Positions 1-45,680 of a stretch of 45,680 bases of DNA are shown one piece after another. The stretch's first letter is position 1; each line of letters begins with the position of its first letter. The stretch is from the sequence record OR544125.1; one strand, written 5' to 3'. Below the pieces are notes generated by a model that was not told the DNA's origin, did not search any database, and saw nothing but the letters and a program-made list of their open reading frames with translations. The position numbers and the translations under genes are program-made. The stretch comes from Acinetobacter phage vB_AbaM_AB4P2.

Positions 1-924
1 GTTAAGGGGTTTGCTGGTATCACGAAGGCATGGATTGAAGAGGCTGAAAACGTCAGTAGGGAATCATGGGATATTCTTGAGCCTACCGTTCGTAACCCCG
101 GGGCTGAAATATGGGTGACATTCAACCCGAACAAAGAAACTGACGCCACATGGACGAGATGGGTTGCCCCGTGGCATGACAAGATGGTCAACGGAATTTA
201 CGAAGATGATGAAATACTCATCATTGAGTGTAACTGGACCGACAACCCGTGGATGACAGAGGAGTTAATCCGCTCAAAGGATAAGATGAAGCGGGTTGAC
301 TTCGACCGCTACATGTGGATATGGGAAGGAAAATTTAACAAACGTAGCGACGAGCAGGTATTTGGCGGTAAATGGCGCATTGATAACTTCGAGGTCAAAC
401 CTGAATGGCACGGCCCATACTTCGGGATGGACTTCGGGTTTTCAACGGATCCTACCGCAATGGTTGAGGTTTACATTGAAGAATTACCGGGCGGGCGACG
501 CAACATTTATATTAATCGCGAGTATGGCAAGGTTGGTCTTGAAATTACCGATACGCCATCCGCGATGGAGCAATCATTCCCGATGGCTAAGCGCGCTCGA
601 TGGTATGCAGACTGCGCTCGACCAGAAACCATCAGCCACATCAAGCGCTCTGGATTCGATATTCATCCATGCACAAAATGGCCGGGCAGTGTTGAGGATG
701 GCGTAACGTGGCTTCGCGGCTGCGACAGCATCATCATTCACGAGCGATGCAAGGAGATGCAGAATGAGGCGGCAATGTACAGCTACAAGGTCGATAAGCT
801 AACTGGGAATGTGCTGACCGATATTGTTGATGCATATAACCATTACTGGGATGCGGTTCGCTACGCACTCAATGACCACATTGTCCAGCGCGGTAGCGGG
901 ATGCTAATCCGGCGCAGGAGATAA
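1..924 (+). CDS. terL: Terminase large subunit, C-terminal nuclease-side part. It is in frame with 45056..45680 across the circular junction. The joined protein is about 471 aa, with Walker A GGRGSAKT in the N-terminal part.
   Basis: Frame 1 runs open from base 1 to the stop at 924. Bases 1-127 are identical to 45554-45680, and the frames match (45554-45056 is divisible by 3). The position after terS and the length fit a terminase ATPase/nuclease. Confidence 0.85.
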   Translation, partial: VKGFAGITKAWIEEAENVSRESWDILEPTVRNPGAEIWVTFNPNKETDATWTRWVAPWHDKMVNGIYEDDEILIIECNWTDNPWMTEELIRSKDKMKRVDFDRYMWIWEGKFNKRSDEQVFGGKWRIDNFEVKPEWHGPYFGMDFGFSTDPTAMVEVYIEELPGGRRNIYINREYGKVGLEITDTPSAMEQSFPMAKRARWYADCARPETISHIKRSGFDIHPCTKWPGSVEDGVTWLRGCDSIIIHERCKEMQNEAAMYSYKVDKLTGNVLTDIVDAYNHYWDAVRYALNDHIVQRGSGMLIRRRR

Positions 925-954: not shown

Positions 955-1776
955 TTAGTTCTCATTAGAAAACGCCTCGCAGCTCTCGCTGCATGAACCA
1001 GTATCGTACTGCCGCATTGACGTCATTCGTGATGCCAGTTCATCCCTGCTTACATCGTTAAATAAAGCTATAACGTCGCCAAGACTTCTGTTTGAGCGAT
1101 ACATTATCTTGTCTGATTTTTTATCTTCATCCTGAATCATCTTCCAAAATTCAGCGGCAAGTTCCGGCTCATCCTTTGCAGCAAGCGCAACTTTCTGCAG
1201 GCTCTTCTTGATGCAGAAAACACAATTACCAAGATGCTCCTGAATTCCAAGGTCGAATTGCTGCATTGACCACCAGTCAAGGATATCCTGCTTTTCAAAG
1301 TCGCTGATGTCTGCAAGGTAATGAAAACCGTCACCTCGGTTCTTTAACCGGTTTGGCTCATCAGACCTGATGCCAAGCCATCTCTCGTAATTTCCTTTTC
1401 CGTATTTTTCATTGCAGTATTTAGTGAATGGCACAGCCTTCATTCTGTCGGTGCAGAACGCACCACCAACATATGGATGACCGTACTTGCGCAACATCCT
1501 CCGCCACGGCTCAAGGTCTGGGCCAATCTCATCGACGGTTAGCTGCTCATACGTACTTGCTTTGCGCATCTCATGATTTGGCACCACACGAAGACACGTC
1601 ACGGCGACATTGAAATGCCTTGCGAAGTTGCGAATAAACTCATACGTTTTTGGGTGCTCAGCGCCCGTGTCCATAAAGATGACCTCCGCTTCAGGGTGTA
1701 TCTTTAGCACCTCCAGAGTCATAAACGCTGAAGTTCTTCCGCCTGAAAAGCTAATAACTTGGTTCATGTCCATCAC
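955..1776 (-). CDS. PAPS/APS-reductase family protein (adenine-nucleotide alpha-hydrolase fold, CysH/DndC-like). A CxxC and a CxxxC near the C-terminus suggest an Fe-S cluster.
   Basis: ISFSGGRTSAF is a PP-loop-like motif. VIFMDTGAEHPKTYEFIRNFARHFNVAVTCLR parallels E. coli CysH [32 protein letters not shown]. The gene is antisense inside a plus-strand block. The RBS aggaaggag suggests the true start is 1767 or 1773. Confidence 0.75.
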   Translation of the reverse strand: MMDMNQVISFSGGRTSAFMTLEVLKIHPEAEVIFMDTGAEHPKTYEFIRNFARHFNVAVTCLRVVPNHEMRKASTYEQLTVDEIGPDLEPWRRMLRKYGHPYVGGAFCTDRMKAVPFTKYCNEKYGKGNYERWLGIRSDEPNRLKNRGDGFHYLADISDFEKQDILDWWSMQQFDLGIQEHLGNCVFCIKKSLQKVALAAKDEPELAAEFWKMIQDEDKKSDKIMYRSNRSLGDVIALFNDVSRDELASRMTSMRQYDTGSCSESCEAFSNEN

Positions 1777-2782: not shown

Positions 2783-4186
2783 ATGTCCAAAATTGATGCA
2801 TTAAACGCCTACATACGCGACCGCGTGGCGAATAATAACCGGGCGCTTCAGCAACAGCGGCTTTGCGCTGGCGGGAAGAATCTGGACCAGAAACGTGAGT
2901 TCATGTGGAAAGAACTGGGCTACCCGCAGGAAATTACCGCCGAGATGTTCCGCTATGCCTACGAGCGACACCCAGCCGCCGCCGCTGGCATCAACCGCAT
3001 TATTAATAAATGCTGGCAGAAATACCCAGAAGTGGTCGAAGATGGCGAGGATGACAAAAGCTCAACGTCGTGGGAACTATCCATCAACAATATGATGAAG
3101 CGTGCCTATCCGTTCATCAAGGAGGCTGACAAGCGCAACGCCATCAACCGTTACTCTGCTGTCATCCTGCAAATCCGCGATGGCAAGCAATGGAGTGAGC
3201 CTGTAGACATCACCAAAACCCGCCGCATTAAAGATAAATCCATCGTTCGCTTCATTCCAGTGTGGGAAGAACAACTCCGTGTCAGTGCATGGAATAATGA
3301 TGAAGCCAGCGAAGACTACGGAATGCCTGAGATGTACGAATATCAGGAAAGCGCCGTGGAAGACTTCGACAGTGACGGCAAACCTGAGCGTTCAGTACAG
3401 ATTCATCCTGACCGCATCATTATTCTGGCTGAGGGTAGTTTTGATGGCAGCATGTTCAGTGGCGTTCCGATGCTGCGCGCTGGCTACAACAGCCTTATCG
3501 ATATGGCTAAAGTTTCCGGTAGTTCTGCGGAAGGCTTCCTGAAGAACGCAAGCCGTCAACTGGCCGTTAACTACACGAAGGATAACGTAACGCCAGCAAG
3601 CCTAGCTCAGTCGATGGGAGTCGATATTGAAGAACTCACCGACATCATGAATGAGAATATCGAGGCGCTAAACTCAGGCATCGACGCCGCTATGTTCACA
3701 ATGGGTGCTGATGCTAAGGTTCTTGCTGTAACGCCAGCAGACCCGAAGCCAACGTGGGAAGTTGCAGCTAACCAGTTCGCTGCGTCAATGGCGCTCCCGT
3801 TTACCGTCATTTTTGGACAGCAGACCGGACGCCTTGCAAGCGATGAAGACAAGATGCAGGAGGCGATGACCGCCAAGCAGCGCCGAGAAACATGGGTTGA
3901 TTATGTCATCTCTATGTTCGTTGAGCGCATGATTCAGTTCGGCATTGTCGATAAAGCCCCGGCAAACGGATACAAGGTTAAGTGGGATGACCTGCTTGCC
4001 CCATCCGAACTGGATAAAGCGGAATTGCTGGCTAAACTCGCCACTGCCAACAAGTCTTTCTTTGACGCCGGTCAATCTGCGCTACTGACCGTCGATGAGG
4101 CTCGCGGCATGGTTGGTATGGAGCCGATTGAAGAACTTCAGATCGTCACTGAGGGCAATCCTGACGATGAAAATCAAAATCTTTAA
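2783..4186 (+). CDS. Portal protein (467 aa).
   Basis: It is the first large morphogenesis ORF downstream of terL, and its size is typical of siphovirus portals. No motif was checked. Confidence 0.6.
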
Positions 4187-5120
4187 GGTTAGCGCCAGAC
4201 TGGTTGGTCCGAAAATACCAACCAGTAAAACAGACCCTGTTGGAGCTAACAGGAGACTAAGCAAGGCAAACAAACAGATTGAGGCGCGATACAAGCGCCT
4301 TAAATCGTCAGCCATAGACTTATTCAGGTCAATTCCAGTTGCCGCGATTAACTCCATTGATACTTATGGTTACAGGTATGATTTTTCAGCAGCTCGGGCA
4401 GCTCAATTCAATGAGGCATTGCAGCAGCTAATTGATGAAATCCTGCTTGACGACACACAGCCGATGAATGCAGGTCAGTTCTGGATGTCAATTTATGTCT
4501 CTGACGCCTATTCAGCTGGTACTGTTGAGGCGCAACAGCAACTGGCAGCTATGTCTCCACTCTATGCTGAGCGTCGTTCAATTGCAGACATTATTTACTC
4601 GGAGCCATATTTGCAGCGCCTGTCTATTGCCAATGCCACCACTTACAGTGATTGGGTTGGCATTGGTGACGCGGCGCGCAATGATTTGTCTCAAGTGATC
4701 ATGAATGCTATCGCTGTTGGTTCTAATCCGAGAGATATTGAATCAGACATCATTAAGCGCGTTGGTGTAAGTGAATCGCGAGCAAAAAATATCGCCCAAA
4801 CCGAGCTTACAGGCATTTTACGTAAGTCGCAGTCTGACGAGGTTCAGGAATCAAAGATTATTTTGGGGTTGAATAGTGCGCTCTTTTGGGTGTCGGCATT
4901 ATTAAAAACTACCCGCGCCACGCACTCAGCCAGACACGCACGCGCTTTTAGCCCGGAGGACGTAGAGGAATTTTACTCAAAGGACGGGAATCGCTATCGC
5001 TGCCATTGTGCGCAAACACCATGCATGTTAGATGAAAATGGCAATGTAATCATGCTTGAGTCATCTCTTAATAAGATGGTGATGGCAAGAGAAAAATGGA
5101 AATCACAGCACGAGAAGTGA
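4167..5120 (+). CDS. Head morphogenesis / minor head protein (SPP1 gp7 / Mu F-like position).
   Basis: It follows the portal directly. The listed ORF starts at 4095. The ATG at 4167 (MKIKIFKV) avoids a long overlap with the portal gene. Confidence 0.45.
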
Positions 5121-5210
5121 TATAATCACAAGTGCAGCTAGACCGGCCAGTCGAAAAGGTGAACGTGACGCCCTGCTGCAATCTTCATCACGAACCTACA
5201 CGAGGTTATC

Positions 5211-6299
5211 ATGTCAAAAGAAAAGACATCACGCTTTGTTTCTGAAGTAATCCGTCGATATGGCAATCGTTATGATTATTCAAAGACTAATTACAAAAAC
5301 TCAAAAACTAAAGTCATCATTACCTGCCGCGAGCATGGTGATTTTATGCAATCACCATCAAATCATTTAGCTGGTAATGGATGTCCGGCGTGTGCGTGCA
5401 TCAGAAGAGGCAACGCAAAAAGAAGCGATGCGGAATCGTTTATATTAAAAGCCAAAACAATCCATTCTAATACATACGAATACTCGAAAGTTAAATACAA
5501 AGATTGCGAATCAAAAGTTGTAATAGTTTGCCGAAGGCATGGTGAATTTGAACAAAGACCATCAGATCACTTACATGGTCAGGGATGCCCTAGCTGCGGA
5601 CTCATAAAGAGAGCAAGGTCTTATTCTCTTGGTAATGATCTGTTTATTGAGAAATCAAAGAGCATTCATGGTGACAGATATGATTACTCACTCGTTAAGT
5701 ATGAAGCAAACAATAAAGAAGTAATGATACTTTGCGAAATTCATGGGGTTTTCTTGCAAAAACCATCAGTGCATCTCATTGGATGTGGATGTCCGTACTG
5801 CGGTAAGAGCAAGCAAGTAAAATCACAAACTGATAGCGAGGCTGATTTTGCTAGAAAATCAAGGGCGGTCCATGGAGATAAATACATTTATGATAAATGC
5901 GGCTACAAGAACTCCCTCACCAACGTGTCAATAACATGCCCCATACATGGCGTATTCGTACAGCGAGCATCGCATCATATACAAGGATCTGGATGTCCAT
6001 CATGTGCTGTAACAGGATTTGATAAGAATAAGAAATCGTATGTTTACTTCCTAATGAGCGAGAAAGGAATAAAAGTTGGGATAACCAATAAAATAAAGCA
6101 ACGCATTATGCAACTAAGAAGCAGTACGCCATTTGAGTTTGAGGTGATTAAGTACGTAAAACTTTCAGGCGTTGATGCAATATCAATGGAGAACGATTAT
6201 CACAATAGATATGAGTCCGCTGGACTTAGTGGGTTCAATGGATGCACCGAATGGCTTAAGTATTCACCAGAATTAATGAATGAAATAATGAATAATTAG
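5211..6299 (+). CDS. T5orf172 / MUG113 (GIY-YIG-like) domain protein with four N-terminal tandem zinc-ribbon repeats. Putative free-standing homing-type endonuclease.
   Basis: Four repeats of about 65 aa follow the pattern F..K...H...Y.YSK..Y.....K..I.C..HG.F.Q.PS.HL.G.GCP.C. The C-terminus YVYFLMSEKGIKVGITNKIKQRIMQLRSS...NGCTEWLKY matches the T5orf172 pattern ending in EW(F/L). Confidence 0.6.
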   Translation: MSKEKTSRFVSEVIRRYGNRYDYSKTNYKNSKTKVIITCREHGDFMQSPSNHLAGNGCPACACIRRGNAKRSDAESFILKAKTIHSNTYEYSKVKYKDCESKVVIVCRRHGEFEQRPSDHLHGQGCPSCGLIKRARSYSLGNDLFIEKSKSIHGDRYDYSLVKYEANNKEVMILCEIHGVFLQKPSVHLIGCGCPYCGKSKQVKSQTDSEADFARKSRAVHGDKYIYDKCGYKNSLTNVSITCPIHGVFVQRASHHIQGSGCPSCAVTGFDKNKKSYVYFLMSEKGIKVGITNKIKQRIMQLRSSTPFEFEVIKYVKLSGVDAISMENDYHNRYESAGLSGFNGCTEWLKYSPELMNEIMNN

Positions 6300-8265: not shown

Positions 8266-8280
8266 TGGGGCTTTGCTGTT
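8253..8280. terminator. Bidirectional terminator between the lysis operon (+) and the minus-strand accessory island.
   Basis: Hairpin aagcccc / ggggctt with T-runs on both strands. Confidence 0.6.
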
Positions 8281-8545
8281 AATCAATAACCATCCAGTCA
8301 TTTGCAATCATATCGGTTTGGCTTGCTAACCATGGTACCAGTTTCCCGTCAGCCGTTTTCATGCAGATGAACGGCAACGTATTAAGCCCATCAACCCCAT
8401 CAATATCGCACTCAAAATCCCATGCCCCTCCTGCTATCATAAACAGGAACATGCCCTTTCCATTCCACCCGCTCCTTGCGACCTTGCATCCAATTTCCAT
8501 CTCCTTCAAGGCATCACCAAATCTTAAAGACATTTTACACCTCAC
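8279..8545 (-). CDS. DUF2829 / Tad2-like small protein (88 aa). Candidate anti-Thoeris signal sponge.
   Basis: FGDALKEM...CKVARSGWNGKGMFLFM and the C-terminal WLASQTDMIANDWMV match my recollection of the DUF2829 pattern (FGEALEALK.GKKVAREGWNGKGMF ... W.ASQ.DILADDW). I could not run an HMM. Confidence 0.45.
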   Translation of the reverse strand: MRCKMSLRFGDALKEMEIGCKVARSGWNGKGMFLFMIAGGAWDFECDIDGVDGLNTLPFICMKTADGKLVPWLASQTDMIANDWMVID

Positions 8546-8659
8546 TCGTATAGTGGCTTCATCTCATAGCCAAACATGACTGCATTATGGTGCTCAACGC
8601 TACCAGCAAACACCAGATAGCGGCGACCACGATTATCCGTAACGATGTAGGCAGACGGC

Positions 8660-15458: not shown

Positions 15459-15486
15459 TAAAGCCCCATGTCGGGGCTTTTGATTG
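15459..15486. terminator. Bidirectional terminator.
   Basis: aagccccatgtcggggcttttg. On the minus strand it ends the antisense island. Confidence 0.65.
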
Positions 15487-16023
15487 CTACAGACGCATAG
15501 GCATAACAACAATATTCGCAGTCTCTCCAGATGGCGCGCTAAGACAGCAAACTGCGGCATTTGTATTTCCATTCAACTCAAACTTAACGCTGCTGAATTT
15601 AGGATTAAACAGCTTCGCCACTTTCTCAATATCAACCAGATAACCAGCATTAAATCCGATGCAATCTGCCGCTTTCGTTTCCTTTGGTATAACACGATCA
15701 ATGTCAGGGAATCGTCCGTCAATCTCTTCGCATATACCAGTGCCAACCATCACTCCAACTTCATCATGATACGTTGCAATTTTCGACTTGGTATCAATGA
15801 TGGCGTAGTCATAGCGTTTTGTTGGAGATTTGCCAATCTTGATAATCACATTTTCTGTCAGCGTATTGTCATGGCTTCCACCAATGAATGCGCGATGACC
15901 GTCAGTTGATGCAATGCGACCATCAGTCATGAAGCAAATGCCATTCAGGTAGTAGCGCACATCATTGCGAGCCTGAAAGATTAATGCTGACTCAAGTAAT
16001 AATTTGCTTATTTTTAGTTTCAT
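15487..16023 (-). CDS. Truncated DNA polymerase III beta sliding-clamp (DnaN) homologue. It keeps domain II and the C-terminal half of domain III, and lacks domain I.
   Basis: [29 protein letters not shown] matches E. coli DnaN [44 protein letters not shown] matches [28 protein letters not shown] matches GFNVSYVLDVLNALK. The C-terminus IVVMPMRL matches AAYVVMPMRL. RBS aaggtgaag precedes the ATG at 16023. The listed ORF extends to 16065. Confidence 0.8.
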   Translation of the reverse strand: [178 protein letters not shown]

Positions 16024-16182
16024 CACTTCACCTTGATCATGTGCTGTTTTGCAACCTTCAGGCATTCTTCAAAAATGCCACCCTTCTTTGCGCTCTGATT
16101 GCGCTTGTAATACTGAATAGCCGCATCAATTGCCATCTGGTCGATGTCAGGCAGCTTGGTGCGAAGTTGCTTGACGAGAAAA

Positions 16183-16677
16183 TCATAAACGTTCACTTTT
16201 TACTCCGTGATTCTCGTGATACCCAGTTGAAGTTTCAGCTTTTTCTCTAGCGGATATTGCATCTTCTTTATTGGCAAAAAAACCAATATGCATCTTTGAT
16301 ACATAAGCCCTCCATAACCCACTCTTCCTGTCAAAGCTAACACCAGTTCTTCCTGATTTGTTATTTTTCTGCCTGCTAAGATTTCTATGGTTCTCTATAT
16401 GGCTCACCAGCCTTAAGTTTTCAATGCGGTTATCATCACGAATATGGTTAATGTGATCAATTTGCATCCCGTCAGGGATTGGTCCATTAAACATCTCCCA
16501 TATGATTCTGTGAGCCAAGAATTTTTTGTAATCAACGCATATGATTACATATCCTGTATTTGCAATTGTCCCAGCTAAAGAGCCACTTAGCATTTTTCTT
16601 TTTTGGTGCTTCCACCTAAGAACCCCATTATCATAATGAAAAATATCACCCCAATTTATTTTAGTTGTGCTCATCAC
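16183..16677 (-). CDS. HNH (HNH_3) plus AP2-domain homing endonuclease.
   Basis: IDHINHIRDDNRIENLRLVSHIENHRN is the HNH_3 motif. SGRTGVSFDRKSGLWRAYV is an AP2 DNA-binding domain. Confidence 0.8.
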   Translation of the reverse strand: MMSTTKINWGDIFHYDNGVLRWKHQKRKMLSGSLAGTIANTGYVIICVDYKKFLAHRIIWEMFNGPIPDGMQIDHINHIRDDNRIENLRLVSHIENHRNLSRQKNNKSGRTGVSFDRKSGLWRAYVSKMHIGFFANKEDAISAREKAETSTGYHENHGVKSERL

Positions 16678-17483
16678 ATCTTCTCCAGAATTGCCATAAC
16701 CTCGTGAATATCAGCGACAGGAATCTGAATAAACTCCTCATCTTCTGCCACTACATGACCAGCAGGTAGAATCACGTGGTCTGCTTGCTTCAACAGCTCA
16801 ATCAGGCGGTCTACTGGCTTAATCTTTTTCGACTTCAGCACTTTGGCTGTAACCTTGTCTTTGCCTTGTGCTTTGGCCTCTTCGACTGCCTCGTCGATAA
16901 CTTTTACTGCATCCTCACCATGCTCACGAGTTACCGCTACGGCATTTGCATAGCTAATTTGCCCGGCACTGATTCGCGCTTTCACCTCCGCTGGCACATC
17001 ACCCAGTGACAGGTGCATTTGCACGTCAGATACTGAGCGACCTACCTTCTTGGCGATTTCTTCATTCGTCCAGCCAAAGCCTTTCAGTCGCGTGTAGGCC
17101 TTTGCGCGTTCAAACGGGTCAAGTTGCTTACCCTGACTGGATGACACCATGAAGGCGATTTTGTCCGCCTCGTCGCCAGTGAAATCCTTACATTCAATGC
17201 GAACGATTGGTGCGCCACGTTCAATTGCACGCAGTGCGCCGAGATAGCGATGCTGACCGTCAAGAATGCGGATTCCCTTCTCGTCTGGAATAACTGTTAA
17301 TGCTGGTAATGGCTGGCCTGATTCCCAGCATTGCGCGAAATATTCGACATGCTGCTCATCTGCTTCACGGATGTTGTATCCCGGCTCCAGATAGATTTGC
17401 TCCACTGGCACGAGATAGGTTTTGTTAACAGCGATGCCGTTTCGCGTTTCTTTGTCTGAATAGATTTTGCTTAGTGTCTTCAT
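16674..17483 (-). CDS. DGQHR-domain protein (ParB/Srx-fold, DndB/DpdB-like).
   Basis: GIRILDGQHRYLGALRA contains the exact DGQHR signature. It has a ParB N-domain-like context and a charged, helical C-terminal half. Confidence 0.7.
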   Translation of the reverse strand: MKTLSKIYSDKETRNGIAVNKTYLVPVEQIYLEPGYNIREADEQHVEYFAQCWESGQPLPALTVIPDEKGIRILDGQHRYLGALRAIERGAPIVRIECKDFTGDEADKIAFMVSSSQGKQLDPFERAKAYTRLKGFGWTNEEIAKKVGRSVSDVQMHLSLGDVPAEVKARISAGQISYANAVAVTREHGEDAVKVIDEAVEEAKAQGKDKVTAKVLKSKKIKPVDRLIELLKQADHVILPAGHVVAEDEEFIQIPVADIHEVMAILEKM

Positions 17484-17842
17484 TGTTTCTTTCCTAGTGC
17501 TTTCTTGATAGATTCTTCAGCTAACAGTAATTCCTCTGGGTATTGTTCATTCCAGTTTTGTTTGTATGCCTTGCTAAGCATTTTTTGCAGAGATTCAAGC
17601 AACTCAGGGGCTGCTGCCATTAAATTAAAGTCATGCACAACGCTGCCATCAATCTCCCAATGCATCCCGTTGTATTTGGCACCCTTACTAGAGAAGGCGA
17701 TGTTTCTGTCATCGTCATAGTGACAACCCGGCGTGTCATCAGCTCTACAAGACGGGTAAACCGCTGCGCAACCACCGCGAATATCTGCAACCCACGGACC
17801 TGGCGTGCCTTTAAATTCTTTCATCTCCATTACCTCTAACAT
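17480..17842 (-). CDS. Ead/Ea22-like family protein (C-terminal domain type).
   Basis: GTPGPWVAD and the later LMAAAPELLESLQKML fit the Ead/Ea22-like pattern (GPW ... LIAAAPELLEAL), from memory. Confidence 0.4.
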   Translation of the reverse strand: MLEVMEMKEFKGTPGPWVADIRGGCAAVYPSCRADDTPGCHYDDDRNIAFSSKGAKYNGMHWEIDGSVVHDFNLMAAAPELLESLQKMLSKAYKQNWNEQYPEELLLAEESIKKALGKKQ

Positions 17843-17851
17843 TTATTGTTG

Positions 17852-17900
17852 TTTCTACGTCACTAACTATAAACGCCGCACCAATCTACGTCAACAGGAA
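17852..17900. promoter_or_regulatory. Divergent promoter region. Two minus-oriented motif copies sit beside the shared string CGTCAACAGGAA, which precedes a plus-strand gene.
   Basis: tttctacgtca (17852-17862) and aatctacgtcaacaggaa (17883-17900). The same cgtcaacaggaa string recurs at 38949-38960 and as a reverse complement at 42391-42403. Confidence 0.45.
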
Positions 17901-17940
17901 TATGCTAAAATCATGCTAATCAAACAACAGGAGATTTAAA

Positions 17941-18060
17941 CATGGGTTCAACCAATTCGCCGTCTCGTTCACGCGCTACTGGTAACACCAAAACCGGCGG
18001 CAAAACTGGCGCAGTGAAGCCAAACGGCTCTACCCGTTCACCATCGCGCGGTAAGAAATA
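17941..18060 (+). CDS. Small basic Ser/Thr/Gly-rich protein (39 aa).
   Basis: RBS caggagatttaaac precedes the ATG. MGSTNSPSRSRATGNTKTGGK... It is speculative. Confidence 0.25.
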
Positions 18061-23260: not shown

Positions 23261-23977
23261 ATGCAAAACATGAGCAATCGCACGCCACTAACAGAAATCG
23301 GAGAGATGCGCATTTCGCTTTCTGACAGGAGTTTTTTCTTTAAGCCATCATTCCGCGCCATGAATGAAATCGGCACACCAAAAGAAATCGTCGAGGTGTA
23401 CGCTAAGCTCAATGGCATTGATTATGTTGCGCCATTGCAGCAGGTAGAATACCTGCCATTCGGCGCGCAGATGCAGGTTATGAAAACCATCAGCAAGCCT
23501 GTGTATGGTCGCCATGTGCTGAGTGCGGCCTATATCGTTATGCAATCATGCTGCGAAGATGATATTTCAGTGCTGATTGGTGGGTGGAAGCCAACGCCGC
23601 GCGGTGTTCGATATGTTCCGGGAGTAATGCCAGTGAGCGACATTATTATTATTGCGCGCAACCTGATGCAGCACGGCGTCATTGGCAAATCCCCACTCAA
23701 GGTGCCTGAACGGCTGGAAGAGCAGGGAAAGAAAACCACAAACGAGTTTCATGCGTCGCAATACATCATCTCAGCACGCACGCATTTCGACATGACGCGC
23801 GATGATGCCGAAAACCTGTCCATGACAGAGTTTCAGATGATGATTAAGAATAAATATCCAGAGCCGAAAGGGTTAACGAAAGAAGAGCGCGCGGCAGAGT
23901 ACGATCAGGCTAAAGCAGACCGTGAGCGCATGAAGGCACTGGCTGAACGCAAAGCGAAAAAAGCGAGGAATACATAA
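23261..23977 (+). CDS. Tail assembly chaperone (gpG/GT-like position), 238 aa.
   Basis: It lies directly upstream of the tape measure and overlaps it (TAATG). The basic Lys/Ala-rich C-terminus is typical. Confidence 0.5.
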   Translation: MQNMSNRTPLTEIGEMRISLSDRSFFFKPSFRAMNEIGTPKEIVEVYAKLNGIDYVAPLQQVEYLPFGAQMQVMKTISKPVYGRHVLSAAYIVMQSCCEDDISVLIGGWKPTPRGVRYVPGVMPVSDIIIIARNLMQHGVIGKSPLKVPERLEEQGKKTTNEFHASQYIISARTHFDMTRDDAENLSMTEFQMMIKNKYPEPKGLTKEERAAEYDQAKADRERMKALAERKAKKARNT

Positions 23978-26345
23978 TGGCTGAAGAAGTCGGCGGAATT
24001 GTCTATGAAGTCGGGATGGATGTTAAAGGCCTGAAAGCTGGCGCTACAACAGCCAATAAGACCTTAGATGACCTTGAATCATCAACCAACAAAACCACAG
24101 GCGCGCTTGGCAAGCTGGATAAAAACGCCAGAAATGCTGGCAGCGGAATGAAGAATGCTGGCGGCGCAGCTTCAGGGCTAAAAACGCAGATGACGGCTCT
24201 TGCTGGCGCAATATCCGTGTCACTGATTATCGAATGGGGAAAGCGATTCCTTGATGTTGCCGATAACATGACACAACTTCAGGCAAGGATTGCTCGCTTG
24301 TCAACTGATGCGAAAACCGCGAACGAAACATTCAGTACACTGGCAAATATAGCCTCAACAACTGGCGCAAGCCTCAGTGACACTACGAAGCTATGGGAAA
24401 CATTAACTTCATCACTGAAAGAGGCAGGCGCGACAAATGCGCAGGTTCTTAACCTTACCGATACCCTGCAAAAAATAGGTAGAATCGGCGGGTCATCAAC
24501 TGAGGAAATGGCTAACGCCCTGCGCCAGTTTGGTCAGTCAATCGCATCAGGCACAGTACGCGCTGAAGAATTTAACTCCATCCTTGAGCAGATGCCTGAA
24601 CTTGCGCGCCAGATAGCCGCTGGTCTTGGTATTTCAATGGGTGAACTCCGCGCCAGAATGCTTGACGGGAAACTGACAGCAGAAGATGCACTCAATGCAA
24701 TTCAGGACAGAACAAGCGTCGTCAATGCTGAATTCGCAAAGCTACCGCGCTCTATATCTCAGGCAACCGGTAGTCTTGAAACATCATTTGCAAAAATGAT
24801 AGCAAGCATAAACGACGCAACAGGAGCCAGTTCTACCTTTGTTTCAGTTATTGACTCTATTACCTCAGCAATCAACAGACTAACTGGTCAGACTATAGGT
24901 GCAGCAGAGGTTATTTCTGATTTGACATCAACAGCAGAAATGTTCAGTCGTAGAGCAAGAACATGGTCATGGATTGGAATTGATGGTTGGGCTGCGCAGA
25001 ATCAGGCCATAGCGGCGGTAGCAAATCAGGCAGCCACATTGGTCGCGGATATGGATGCTGTCACCAAATCGACAGGAGAGGCGGCAAAGGCGCAAGCGCA
25101 CTTGACAGTGCCAAAAGCAGCAGAGAAAGAGAAAAAGAAAAAAGGAAAAAGCGCCGAAGAACGACAAGCTGAATCAGTAGCTGAAAAGCTGGAGAAACTA
25201 CGCCAGCAAACCATGCTCAATGCCACATCTACCAGCGAACTCTCCCGCGAGCAAGCCATCCTCAACGCGCAGCAATCGCTTGGCAAGGCTGCCACTCAGG
25301 AGCAAATAAAACTGGCCGGCGAGTACGCTGCCAAAATTTGGGACCAGAAGAATGCATTGAAGGAACAGGCAGCGGCGGAGAAGGAAAGGCAGCAACTGGA
25401 AAACTCATTCATCGACCTGCGCAAGAAAGCGTCAGCACTAACTGGAATTGAAGACCAATATGCCACGGACATGGCAAACCTGAAGCAGTACGCAGCAATG
25501 TATCCAGAAGAGATAAAAAGAGTTGAACAGGTAAGAGCAGGGATAGAAGCACAATACCGCCAGCAGCGAATGGATGCCATGTGGCAGGAATGGCAGCAGC
25601 AAAGCCTCGGGGCGCAATTGTTCGGCACGGCGCTTGATTCAGCGATGAGCACAGCATCAAACAGCATCACCGGATTACTTACCGGAGCGATGAGCGTAGA
25701 AGATGCCATGCGCAGTCTCGGCTCTACGGTGCTGAACTCTCTGGTAAACAGCTTTGTTGAAATGGGCGTGCAGTGGGTTAAATCTGCTGTTATGGGTCAA
25801 ACTGCACAGGTTGCGGCTACGGCTACCACCACAGCGGCGCAAACAGCAGGTCTGGCAACAACAACAGCGGCATCGACGGCGGCGGCAGCCACCACTACCG
25901 CAGCATGGACTCCAGCGGCAATCGTAGCATCAATCGGCTCGTTTGGTGGTGCGGCTGCAATTGGTGTAGGTGCTGTCCTCGGGGCACTGGCAATGGGTAT
26001 TGCTGGCAAGCGAAAAAATGGTGGTCCTGTTAGCGCCGGAAGTATGTACGAAGTTGGCGAAAATGGCTTACCTGAGATATTCCAGGCGTCCAATGGTCGC
26101 CAGTATATGATTCCAGGTAACGATGGCTCCGTTATCAGCAACAAAGACCTTACCGGAGGTGGCAGTGGCGTTGTGGTTTATAATAACGTGATAAATAACA
26201 GCTCAGCGCAGGTTAGCAGCAGCGCCAGAGATAATGGTGACGGAAGTGTGACAATTGAGACGATTGTGAGTGATATCGAAAACAACGGCCCTATCGGGCA
26301 AAGCATTGGAAGAAACTACTCAGCAAGCCGGAGGGCAACAGAATA

Positions 26346-26346
<1 letters not shown>
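23977..26346 (+). CDS. Tail tape measure protein (789 aa).
   Basis: Long alpha-helical, Ala/Gln-rich protein in the canonical position. The central Ala/Thr low-complexity tract and C-terminal Gly-rich region are typical of TMPs. Confidence 0.85.
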
Positions 26347-31062
<4,716 letters not shown>

Positions 31063-45066: not shown

Positions 45067-45680
45067 ACGACTCTCTGCACTGGCAATCGAAAAGCTGGAA
45101 GCGCAGATTGATGATGCAATGACAGATGTTGCAGAGTCTGCCATCTTCGGCATCTGCGACATGCAAAAGAACGTCATTAAGCGGTTAAGGATGACCGCTA
45201 CTGGAGTTGATGACGTGACCAATGCAACCACTCATGCCGACCACCTGATTCCAGCAAAGCTGGAGCGATTGCTTTACCCGAAGCCGTGGAAGGTTGTTTA
45301 TGGTGGCCGTGGGTCGGCAAAGACCCGCACAGTATCGACAATCCTTACCGAGTCGGCAAGGTTCAAATCAGAGCGTATCGGGTGCTTCCGCGAGATTCAG
45401 CAATCAATTGAAGACTCCAGCTATCAGGAGCTGGTGGACGAGATTGATCGCAAAGGAGAATCAAAAGAGTATCGTTGCATTGATGGCAAGATTACCCACA
45501 AGAAGACTAAATCAAAGTTCCGTTTCCGTGGTCTTTATCGAAACGTGACAGGGGTTAAGGGGTTTGCTGGTATCACGAAGGCATGGATTGAAGAGGCTGA
45601 AAACGTCAGTAGGGAATCATGGGATATTCTTGAGCCTACCGTTCGTAACCCCGGGGCTGAAATATGGGTGACATTCAACC
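45056..45680 (+). CDS. terL: Terminase large subunit, N-terminal ATPase part (continues at 1..924).
   Basis: MARKRLSALAIEKLEAQ... with Walker A KVVYGGRGSAKT. It is open to the end of the window, in frame with the ORF at 1..924. Confidence 0.85.
   Translation, partial: MARKRLSALAIEKLEAQIDDAMTDVAESAIFGICDMQKNVIKRLRMTATGVDDVTNATTHADHLIPAKLERLLYPKPWKVVYGGRGSAKTRTVSTILTESARFKSERIGCFREIQQSIEDSSYQELVDEIDRKGESKEYRCIDGKITHKKTKSKFRFRGLYRNVTGVKGFAGITKAWIEEAENVSRESWDILEPTVRNPGAEIWVTFN
45554..45680 (+). repeat. 127-bp exact direct repeat of window bases 1-127. This is terminal redundancy, i.e. an assembly overlap of a circular or circularly permuted genome.
   Basis: The base-for-base identity can be read directly from the sequence. 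Confidence 0.95.

Follow-up and report, generated by a model that had tools for sequence, protein, structure and literature searches.

A short phage-borne relative of the beta sliding clamp that keeps the partner-binding pocket and appears to have lost the means to form a ring

The genome of Acinetobacter phage vB_AbaM_AB4P2 (sequence record OR544125.1; the window analysed here is the whole stretch of 45,680 nucleotides) carries at 15487..16023, on the minus strand, an intact open reading frame (ORF) of 178 codons whose stop codon lies at 15487–15489. As judged by several independent measures of sequence and predicted fold, its product is a homologue of DnaN, the bacterial beta clamp, reduced to the part of that protein that builds the pocket for clamp-binding motifs (CBMs). 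Our preferred reading, to which we give a rough probability of 0.45, is that it would act as a soluble, non-ring derivative of beta that competes with the host clamp for CBM-bearing partners, as an accessory decoy in host takeover.

The relationship to DnaN is evident in profile, pairwise and structural comparisons, all of them far under the family cut-offs where such cut-offs exist. A phmmer search of the PDB brought up about 30 beta clamps with E<1e-5, with E. coli beta at E=6e-11, and the only Pfam domains found at E<=10 were those of DnaN (PF02767, 18.3, and PF02768, 13.1, against a threshold of 27), with no Pfam match to clamp domain I (PF00712) anywhere in the 178-residue protein. NCBIfam TIGR00663 matched at E=1.7e-9 with 37.1 bits against a cut-off of 137.65, so that the threshold for the DnaN family is not reached. 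When a 104-member alignment of the phage family was compared with E. coli DnaN by hhalign, the two matched with a probability of 99.6% and a single internal gap, over beta residues ~126–253 and 314–366; identity by BLASTP is 29%, and the C-terminal VVMPMRL is the same in both proteins, as had been pointed out in an earlier note made from the sequence alone. An AlphaFold2 (AF2) model built from the 104-member alignment (pLDDT 97, pTM 0.91) has the clamp fold; this model was used throughout, and one made from the single sequence (pLDDT 36) was discarded.

The E. coli beta clamp (DnaN, 366 residues; PDB 2POL/1MMI) has three domains, and the phage protein is half as long. Residues 1–114 (15682..16023, minus strand) correspond by hhalign, BLASTP and the model to beta domain II and the linker between domains II and III (beta ~126–250), and hold the pocket residues R23, L26, T40, G42, H43, R44, P106, R110 and V111. 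Residues 122–178 (15490..15660, minus strand) correspond to the C-terminal half of domain III (beta 317–366) and hold N125, Y128, V172, M174, P175, M176 and R177. Between the two lies a junction of residues 115–121 (15661..15681, minus strand), recognized as the single hhalign gap, which replaces about 60 deleted residues (beta ~254–313). Beta 1–125 (domain I) and ~254–313 have no counterpart in the phage protein; the latter segment is the N-terminal half of domain III, holding the I272/L273 dimer interface and part of the contact with the clamp-loader subunit delta. The sequence comparison suggests that what was deleted from domain III is exactly its distal part, which takes no part in the pocket and makes the ring. 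Domains II and III contribute to the pocket by their N-terminal and C-terminal halves respectively, together with the linker, and these two halves must therefore be structural neighbours. In the processivity fold, a series of beta-alpha-beta-beta-beta repeats, each half-domain gives one helix to the lining of the DNA channel. Domain II is itself altered, as helix alpha2, which faces DNA in E. coli, is replaced by a loop of ~9 residues (64–72): in the model no helix stands between strands 59–63 and 73–77, two long helices are left in all, and in roughly 95% of the family the replacing segment has ~9 residues. The earlier note had proposed just this composition, with domain II and the C-terminal part of domain III kept and domain I absent, and hhalign and BLASTP bear it out.

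Mutation of I272/L273 makes beta monomeric (PMC11139829). Because domain I, the half-domain with the dimer interface and one DNA-facing helix are all lost, no closed head-to-tail ring around DNA is to be expected, and sequence and model together indicate that the 178-residue protein should be unable to form the head-to-tail dimer. The same conclusion had been drawn in the earlier note from the missing domain I and a loss of about 55 residues of domain III; its further suggestion, that the fragment might poison the host clamp, is unlikely as far as mixed dimers are concerned, the interface elements being deleted. A partner gene or exon restoring a full clamp was considered and rejected: tblastn of the complete genome with domain I and the N-terminal half of domain III gave noise only, and the adjacent 57-residue ORF (see below) resembles neither the clamp nor its missing half.

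The published pocket of beta comprises subsite I (R152, L155, T172, G174, H175, R176, L177, P242, R246, V247, V360, M362) and subsite II (H175, N320, Y323, V344, M362, P363, M364, R365; PMC11139829). All 18 of these positions fall within the retained segments, and 16 are identical to E. coli beta, the exceptions being L177A and V344T. In the family alignment the pocket columns have a mean entropy of 1.2 bits as against 2.7 elsewhere (Mann–Whitney p=5.6e-7), with R23, L26, T40, G42, H43, P106, Y128, M174 and P175 (beta R152, L155, T172, G174, H175, P242, Y323, M362 and P363) near-invariant, and likewise D21, Y25 and G28 of a DVRYYLNG motif. No second conserved surface beyond the pocket and structural residues is apparent in that alignment. 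The ratio of nonsynonymous to synonymous substitution (dN/dS) against the orthologue of phage Skate is 0.09, and the amino-acid differences from Skate cluster at the junction, residues 115–121. Since the pocket columns are the most conserved and no other surface stands out, the selected function would appear to be the pocket itself, and the earlier claim that the pocket is kept can be extended to its being the most strongly selected part of the family. One position of the motif differs among close relatives, in that the Skate orthologue (17476–18012) and that of phage seszw have Cys at residue 25, where the protein described here and 96% of the family have Tyr (beta Y154 in DVRYYLNG).

The gene is a member of a known, widely annotated and functionally uncharacterized family carried by tailed phages. 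It matches PHROG 3007 over its full length (residues 1–178, E=9.9e-62), and an HMMER search of 1.84 billion cluster representatives returned at least 190 clusters (50% identity) at E<=1e-10. Among the best 150 of these matches, complete proteins are almost all of 170–219 residues and the first full-length DnaN appears only around rank 130, so that the short members match each other far better than they match true clamps. Family lengths range from 169 to 219 residues (median 187), and the junction is 7–12 residues long in almost all of the 104 aligned members. By tblastn the protein occurs in 277 phage records, among them phages of Salmonella, Escherichia, Klebsiella, Vibrio, Shigella, Proteus, Acinetobacter and Burkholderia; the family also extends to phages of Shewanella, Pantoea and Morganella, and BFVD contains many phage models of 178–215 residues that share the clamp-like fold (TM 0.8–0.9). 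Because junction length and helix loss are common to the family, the alignment favours one ancient origin over a series of captures. The earlier suggestion of a recent capture from a host does not survive these data: identity to E. coli DnaN is low, sensitive blastn found nothing at the DNA level in 5,426 E. coli genomes, and one junction runs through diverse phages. Short clamp homologues, annotated as hypothetical, also occur on plasmids: one on a plasmid of 52 kb from Arsenophonus has 48% identity, and those on large plasmids of Klebsiella and E. coli have ~30%; some of these may be phage-plasmids.

Twelve phage homologues of the polymerase (Pol) III beta subunit were reported by Kazlauskas and Venclovas in 2011, the short ones being said to cover 'the second and third domains', and their function was not analysed there (PMC3201878). 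The present gene belongs with those short homologues (PHROG 3007, Bcep781 gp15), sharing their length class, junction and phage-borne distribution, and it adds little beyond its relatives. What is new with respect to 2011 is that, as sequence and model indicate, the third domain is represented by its C-terminal half only, a domain II helix is missing and conservation is centred on the pocket. Naming has been inconsistent: GenBank entries of close relatives read 'DNA polymerase III beta subunit', 'beta clamp domain protein' or 'beta sliding clamp', and the Bcep781 gp15 record bears the note 'DNA Pol III b subunit fragment'. PHROG 3007 and many RefSeq records (NC_054646, NC_054650, NC_054639, NC_004333 and others) carry the label 'RusA-like Holliday junction resolvase', a name also found in many Pharokka-annotated phage genomes. 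We rejected this label, as Pfam at E<=10 gave no RusA match and the predicted fold is that of a clamp. Our literature searches found no functional or experimental study of the short phage clamp proteins, and in the BASEL paper we came upon no mention of a clamp. The claim to novelty in the earlier note stands as to a characterized protein of this type, none having turned up in these searches, and was otherwise overstated: short phage homologues had been reported in 2011 (PMC3201878), and the gene is routinely annotated as Pol III beta.

Evidence on whether the gene is needed comes from phage seszw, whose protein is 91% identical to the one described here. Many genomes of viable mutants were deposited from a study that reduced the seszw genome by CRISPR, and genes absent from isolated mutants are non-essential by the definition used there (PMC9825161). 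In one of these, seszw_290L (36.5 kb, large-plaque), the clamp-like gene and the 57-residue ORF are both gone and ~155 bp are left between the flanking genes. More broadly, a 2.1-kb query over the locus matched 72 records at >=99% identity and the clamp-like gene alone matched 46, and on this difference ~26 records of the Skate/seszw clade are without the gene. The gene is accessory under laboratory conditions. The earlier note had counted dispensability without phenotype, along with lack of toxicity and of partner binding, against its own proposal, and of this the dispensability is now seen, in the seszw mutants.

The phages that carry the gene differ widely in their replication equipment. 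This phage, Skate and Murrayvirus Lumpael are without a DNA polymerase of their own; in the present genome none was found by domain scans or in the Skate annotation, as the earlier note had stated, and no clamp loader is encoded. Dhillonvirus TheodorHerzl has its own DNA polymerase I, and a further carrier is a Morganella phage of the Straboviridae (T4-like), phages that encode a full replisome. A strict link of the gene to polymerase-less phages was therefore rejected, since carriers with their own polymerase exist. Genomic position varies as well: the gene stands alone and antisense in head/tail modules of Dhillonvirus, Bcep781, Shewanella phage 1/41 and, effectively, Skate, and lies within helicase/VRR-NUC/exonuclease/SSB modules in LIET2 and Lumpael, and no neighbour is common to all contexts compared. 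A Dam methyltransferase gene adjoins it in PVP-XSN and Lumpael, and in several unrelated phages the short clamp gene is adjacent to, or less than 3 kb from, a Dam-type adenine methyltransferase (PVP-XSN 5001–6296; Lumpael 3316–4555; two further loci), with a methyltransferase also inserted near the locus in some Skatevirus relatives. A functional link between methyltransferase and short clamp, for example in mismatch repair or the control of initiation, is possible.

Several characterized systems bear on how a ring-less pocket might behave. Herpesvirus UL42 and UL44 tether polymerases without encircling DNA; these have two full domains, a strongly basic DNA-binding face and a cognate viral polymerase, whereas the phage protein is near neutral (isoelectric point, pI, 7.6) and has no phage polymerase to serve here, although some carriers possess PolA. 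Closer is the engineered monomeric beta (I272A/L273A), which bound delta ~50-fold more tightly than the ring did and was unable to tether Pol III for processive synthesis (PMC11139829). Being a non-ring form with the pocket kept, it gives the best experimental indication of how a fragment with nothing but the pocket could behave; it differs in being a laboratory mutant with three domains, whereas the phage protein is natural, has 1.5 domains and lacks the loop for a second delta contact. Phage proteins that act on the same host hub include Twort Gp168, which binds beta and plugs its channel (PMC8565349), and MuC of phage Mu, which carries a CBM and binds beta (PMC12867686); beta and its CBM interactions have been targeted by phages more than once. 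Those proteins bind beta, whereas the protein described here would imitate beta's pocket, from the opposite side of the interaction.

In the decoy reading, a protein reduced to domain II, the II–III linker and the C-terminal half of domain III would be transcribed, apparently with a small minus-strand operon, from a host-type promoter, and its pocket would bind Q-L-x-L-F type motifs of host proteins. Candidate partners are those that dock on beta, namely Pol III alpha or epsilon, the clamp-loader delta subunit, Hda, Pol II/IV/V, MutS/MutL and ligase, and the most likely role would be to compete with the host clamp for at least one of them. Such a gene would improve fitness in nature and need not be required for plaque formation in the laboratory. 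We rank the decoy first on three grounds: conservation is confined to the pocket, the gene is accessory, and some carriers have no need of host Pol III. As the engineered monomeric beta shows, a non-ring pocket can still bind partners such as delta and yet not sustain processive synthesis. The idea of a sponge for CBM proteins, raised in the earlier note, likewise stays the leading one, because the ring parts are lost, the pocket is kept and under selection, the phage has no polymerase and no characterized protein of this kind was found in the literature. More specifically, it is possible, if tentative, that the ring-less pocket is a soluble mimic of the host replication hub, repeatedly kept by phages and titrating one specific CBM protein such as delta, Hda, a repair or translesion factor, or a CBM-bearing toxin; we found no description in the literature of a host-takeover or anti-defence strategy by clamp-pocket mimicry.

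Several points count against a decoy. The partner is a conjecture, and so is the direction of the effect, which might be inhibition or recruitment. A strong general CBM sponge would also harm the phage itself, whose replication depends on host Pol III; this speaks for a target that is selective, or for modest expression. The loop near residue 275, one part of the contact with delta, is missing. The pI (family median 8.3, 7.6 for this protein and 5.2 for E. coli beta, which is acidic where the phage protein is neutral) would fit a DNA-binding tether equally well, and the location of the gene inside replication–recombination modules in several phages fits a constructive role.

These last observations are the strength of the main rival, somewhat unlikely in our estimate, in which the protein is a constructive adaptor or non-ring processivity factor that binds DNA or a phage replication–recombination protein, and whose pocket delivers a host enzyme (Pol III, or else ligase or Pol I) or, where there is one, a phage PolA to the intermediates of phage replication or recombination, much as UL42 and UL44 hold their polymerases. 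The upward shift in pI across the family, the placement in replication modules of some phages and the dependence of this phage on Pol III are what such an adaptor would lead one to expect; yet the gene is dispensable for large-plaque growth in seszw and occurs in a T4-like phage with its own clamp and replicase, and the protein has lost one DNA-facing helix, is itself near neutral and belongs to a family in which no conserved second surface is apparent. The earlier note had offered recruitment of host Pol III to phage DNA as an alternative, and this is weakened in the same way, by homologues in phages with their own polymerase and by the dispensability in seszw. A good deal less probable is a special case of the decoy in which the pocket captures a toxin or immune effector, of the host or a prophage, that uses CBMs or monitors the clamp, and replication of the infecting phage is thereby shielded. 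An anti-defence gene might well be accessory and dispensable on a laboratory host, stand as a lone, moron-like antisense gene in structural modules, and be spread over unrelated phages including some with their own replisome, all of which is seen here. PADLOC gave no match, though none would be expected for an anti-defence gene; the literature search linked no defence system to CBMs, and to our knowledge none acts through them, so that the case is purely inferential.

It is improbable that the protein is after all a true sliding clamp, in which 1.5-domain protomers would dimerize into a three-domain crescent and two dimers would close a six-domain ring, the half-domains III pairing across the twofold axis into an intermolecular domain and the pockets lying on both faces. 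The arithmetic is attractive (1.5 domains × 4 = 6 domains), clamp domains are internally pseudo-twofold (the processivity fold), deletion of a half-domain should expose a core surface in need of a partner, and confidence in the AF2 monomer is high even for the half-domain. With alpha2 lost family-wide, however, one in three of the DNA-lining helices of such a ring would be missing; the phage encodes no clamp loader, and seszw is viable without the gene. Very improbable, finally, is that the gene is a decaying, functionless fragment of a captured host dnaN, as the note on Bcep781 gp15 might imply, or a RusA-like Holliday junction resolvase, as PHROG 3007 and many RefSeq records have it. A dN/dS of 0.09, a large, ancient, length-constant family with a conserved pocket, and the want of DNA similarity to E. 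coli genomes argue against decay, and a RusA identity is at odds with Pfam matches to DnaN domains only and with a predicted clamp fold; both versions are already refuted, as far as conservation and predicted fold can tell.

The clamp-like gene, for which we continue to favour the decoy, is the last of a minus-strand group that runs from a 120-residue ORF through a ParB/KorB-like gene, an HNH_3 endonuclease gene and the 57-residue ORF. An AAGGTG stands ahead of its ATG, which shares 1 base with the stop codon of the 57-residue ORF; an alternative upstream ATG would allow a 192-residue reading, and we prefer the 178-residue start because its Met1 is kept in 97% of the family alignment. Directly 3′ of the stop codon, at 15460..15480 on the minus strand, lies an intrinsic-terminator-like hairpin (AAAGCCCCGACATGGGGCTTT, followed by a T-rich tail), and the Skate record has a terminator annotated at the matching position. 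The 57-residue ORF (16023..16196, minus strand; PHROG 4439, function unassigned) is translationally coupled to the clamp-like gene, has no family match in Pfam-type libraries and is absent beside clamp-like homologues in other phages. Upstream of it, the HNH_3 (and AP2-like) homing endonuclease gene (16183..16677, minus strand; Pfam HNH_3 E=1e-22) is an insertion in the operon, between the ParB-like gene and the 57-residue ORF, that occurs in few relatives only (BS5, DS8, PHA46_2) and is absent from this site in Skate, seszw and most others; relatives without it reach a query coverage of only 75%. The ParB/KorB-like DNA-binding protein gene occupies 16674..17483 (minus strand; Pfam HTH_ParB and KorB, TIGR00180, PHROG 1033 E=3e-91), and the first operon gene, the 120-residue ORF of PHROG 1273 (function unassigned), lies at 17480..17842 (minus strand). 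A candidate sigma-70-like promoter upstream of the operon, at 17866..17894 on the minus strand (TTGACG, 17-nt spacer, TATAGT; 10/12 matches), is a consensus match only, and the number of sigma-70-like sites in the region is not above shuffled expectation.

The first 127 nucleotides of the window (1–127) are identical to its last 127 (45554–45680), and because of these identical ends we take the window to be one complete phage genome; it is ~45,553 bp long and either closed into a circle or terminally redundant. The window ends divide the large terminase gene, whose C-terminal part lies at 115–924. The genome is ~90% identical to those of Salmonella phage BS5 and Shigella phage DS8 and syntenic with those of Skate and seszw (genus Skatevirus). 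Its replication genes encode an SSB, an AAA_24 ATPase, a PDDEXK exonuclease, a SNF2-type helicase, a primase and a DUF3987 protein. As PADLOC returned no match, we rejected the clamp-like gene as a component of one. Motif scans of the phage's own proteins found no credible CBM, the matches being confined to antisense or spurious frames, the helix–turn–helix region of the ParB-like protein (QMHLSL) and a weak QTDMI near the end of the ORF at 8279–8563. That frame, a stop-free stretch on the minus strand and a putative ORF, terminates in ...SQTDMIANDWMVID, and its QTDMI resembles the CBMs of Pol III alpha (QADMF) and epsilon (QTSMAF). Elsewhere in the genome, a 789-residue ORF with a TMP_3 domain (23977–26346, plus strand) is followed directly by a 456-residue ORF (26346–27716, plus strand) that has no Pfam match; Skate has one tape measure protein of 1096 residues in place of these two, and the difference could reflect a split, an insertion or a frameshift. 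A gene with a PAPS-reductase domain lies near the terminase (955–1776, minus strand), and a T5orf172/MUG113-type gene, likely a homing endonuclease, stands at 5211–6299 (plus strand) between a head-morphogenesis gene and the following module.

The pocket of beta is the docking hub of bacterial replication and repair and an antibiotic target. A widespread phage family that keeps this pocket and drops the rest of what makes a clamp would imply that phages exploit clamp–partner interactions, and recognition of the family would correct the RusA-like misannotation that is spreading through RefSeq phage genomes. For inhibitor screening, its members may also serve as a pocket scaffold that is small, of monomer size and shaped by natural evolution. 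If the mimic reading is true, they would represent a natural protein mimic of the clamp pocket, the mirror image of those phage clamp inhibitors that bind beta, and the identity of the partner would show which clamp-dependent host process matters in infection.
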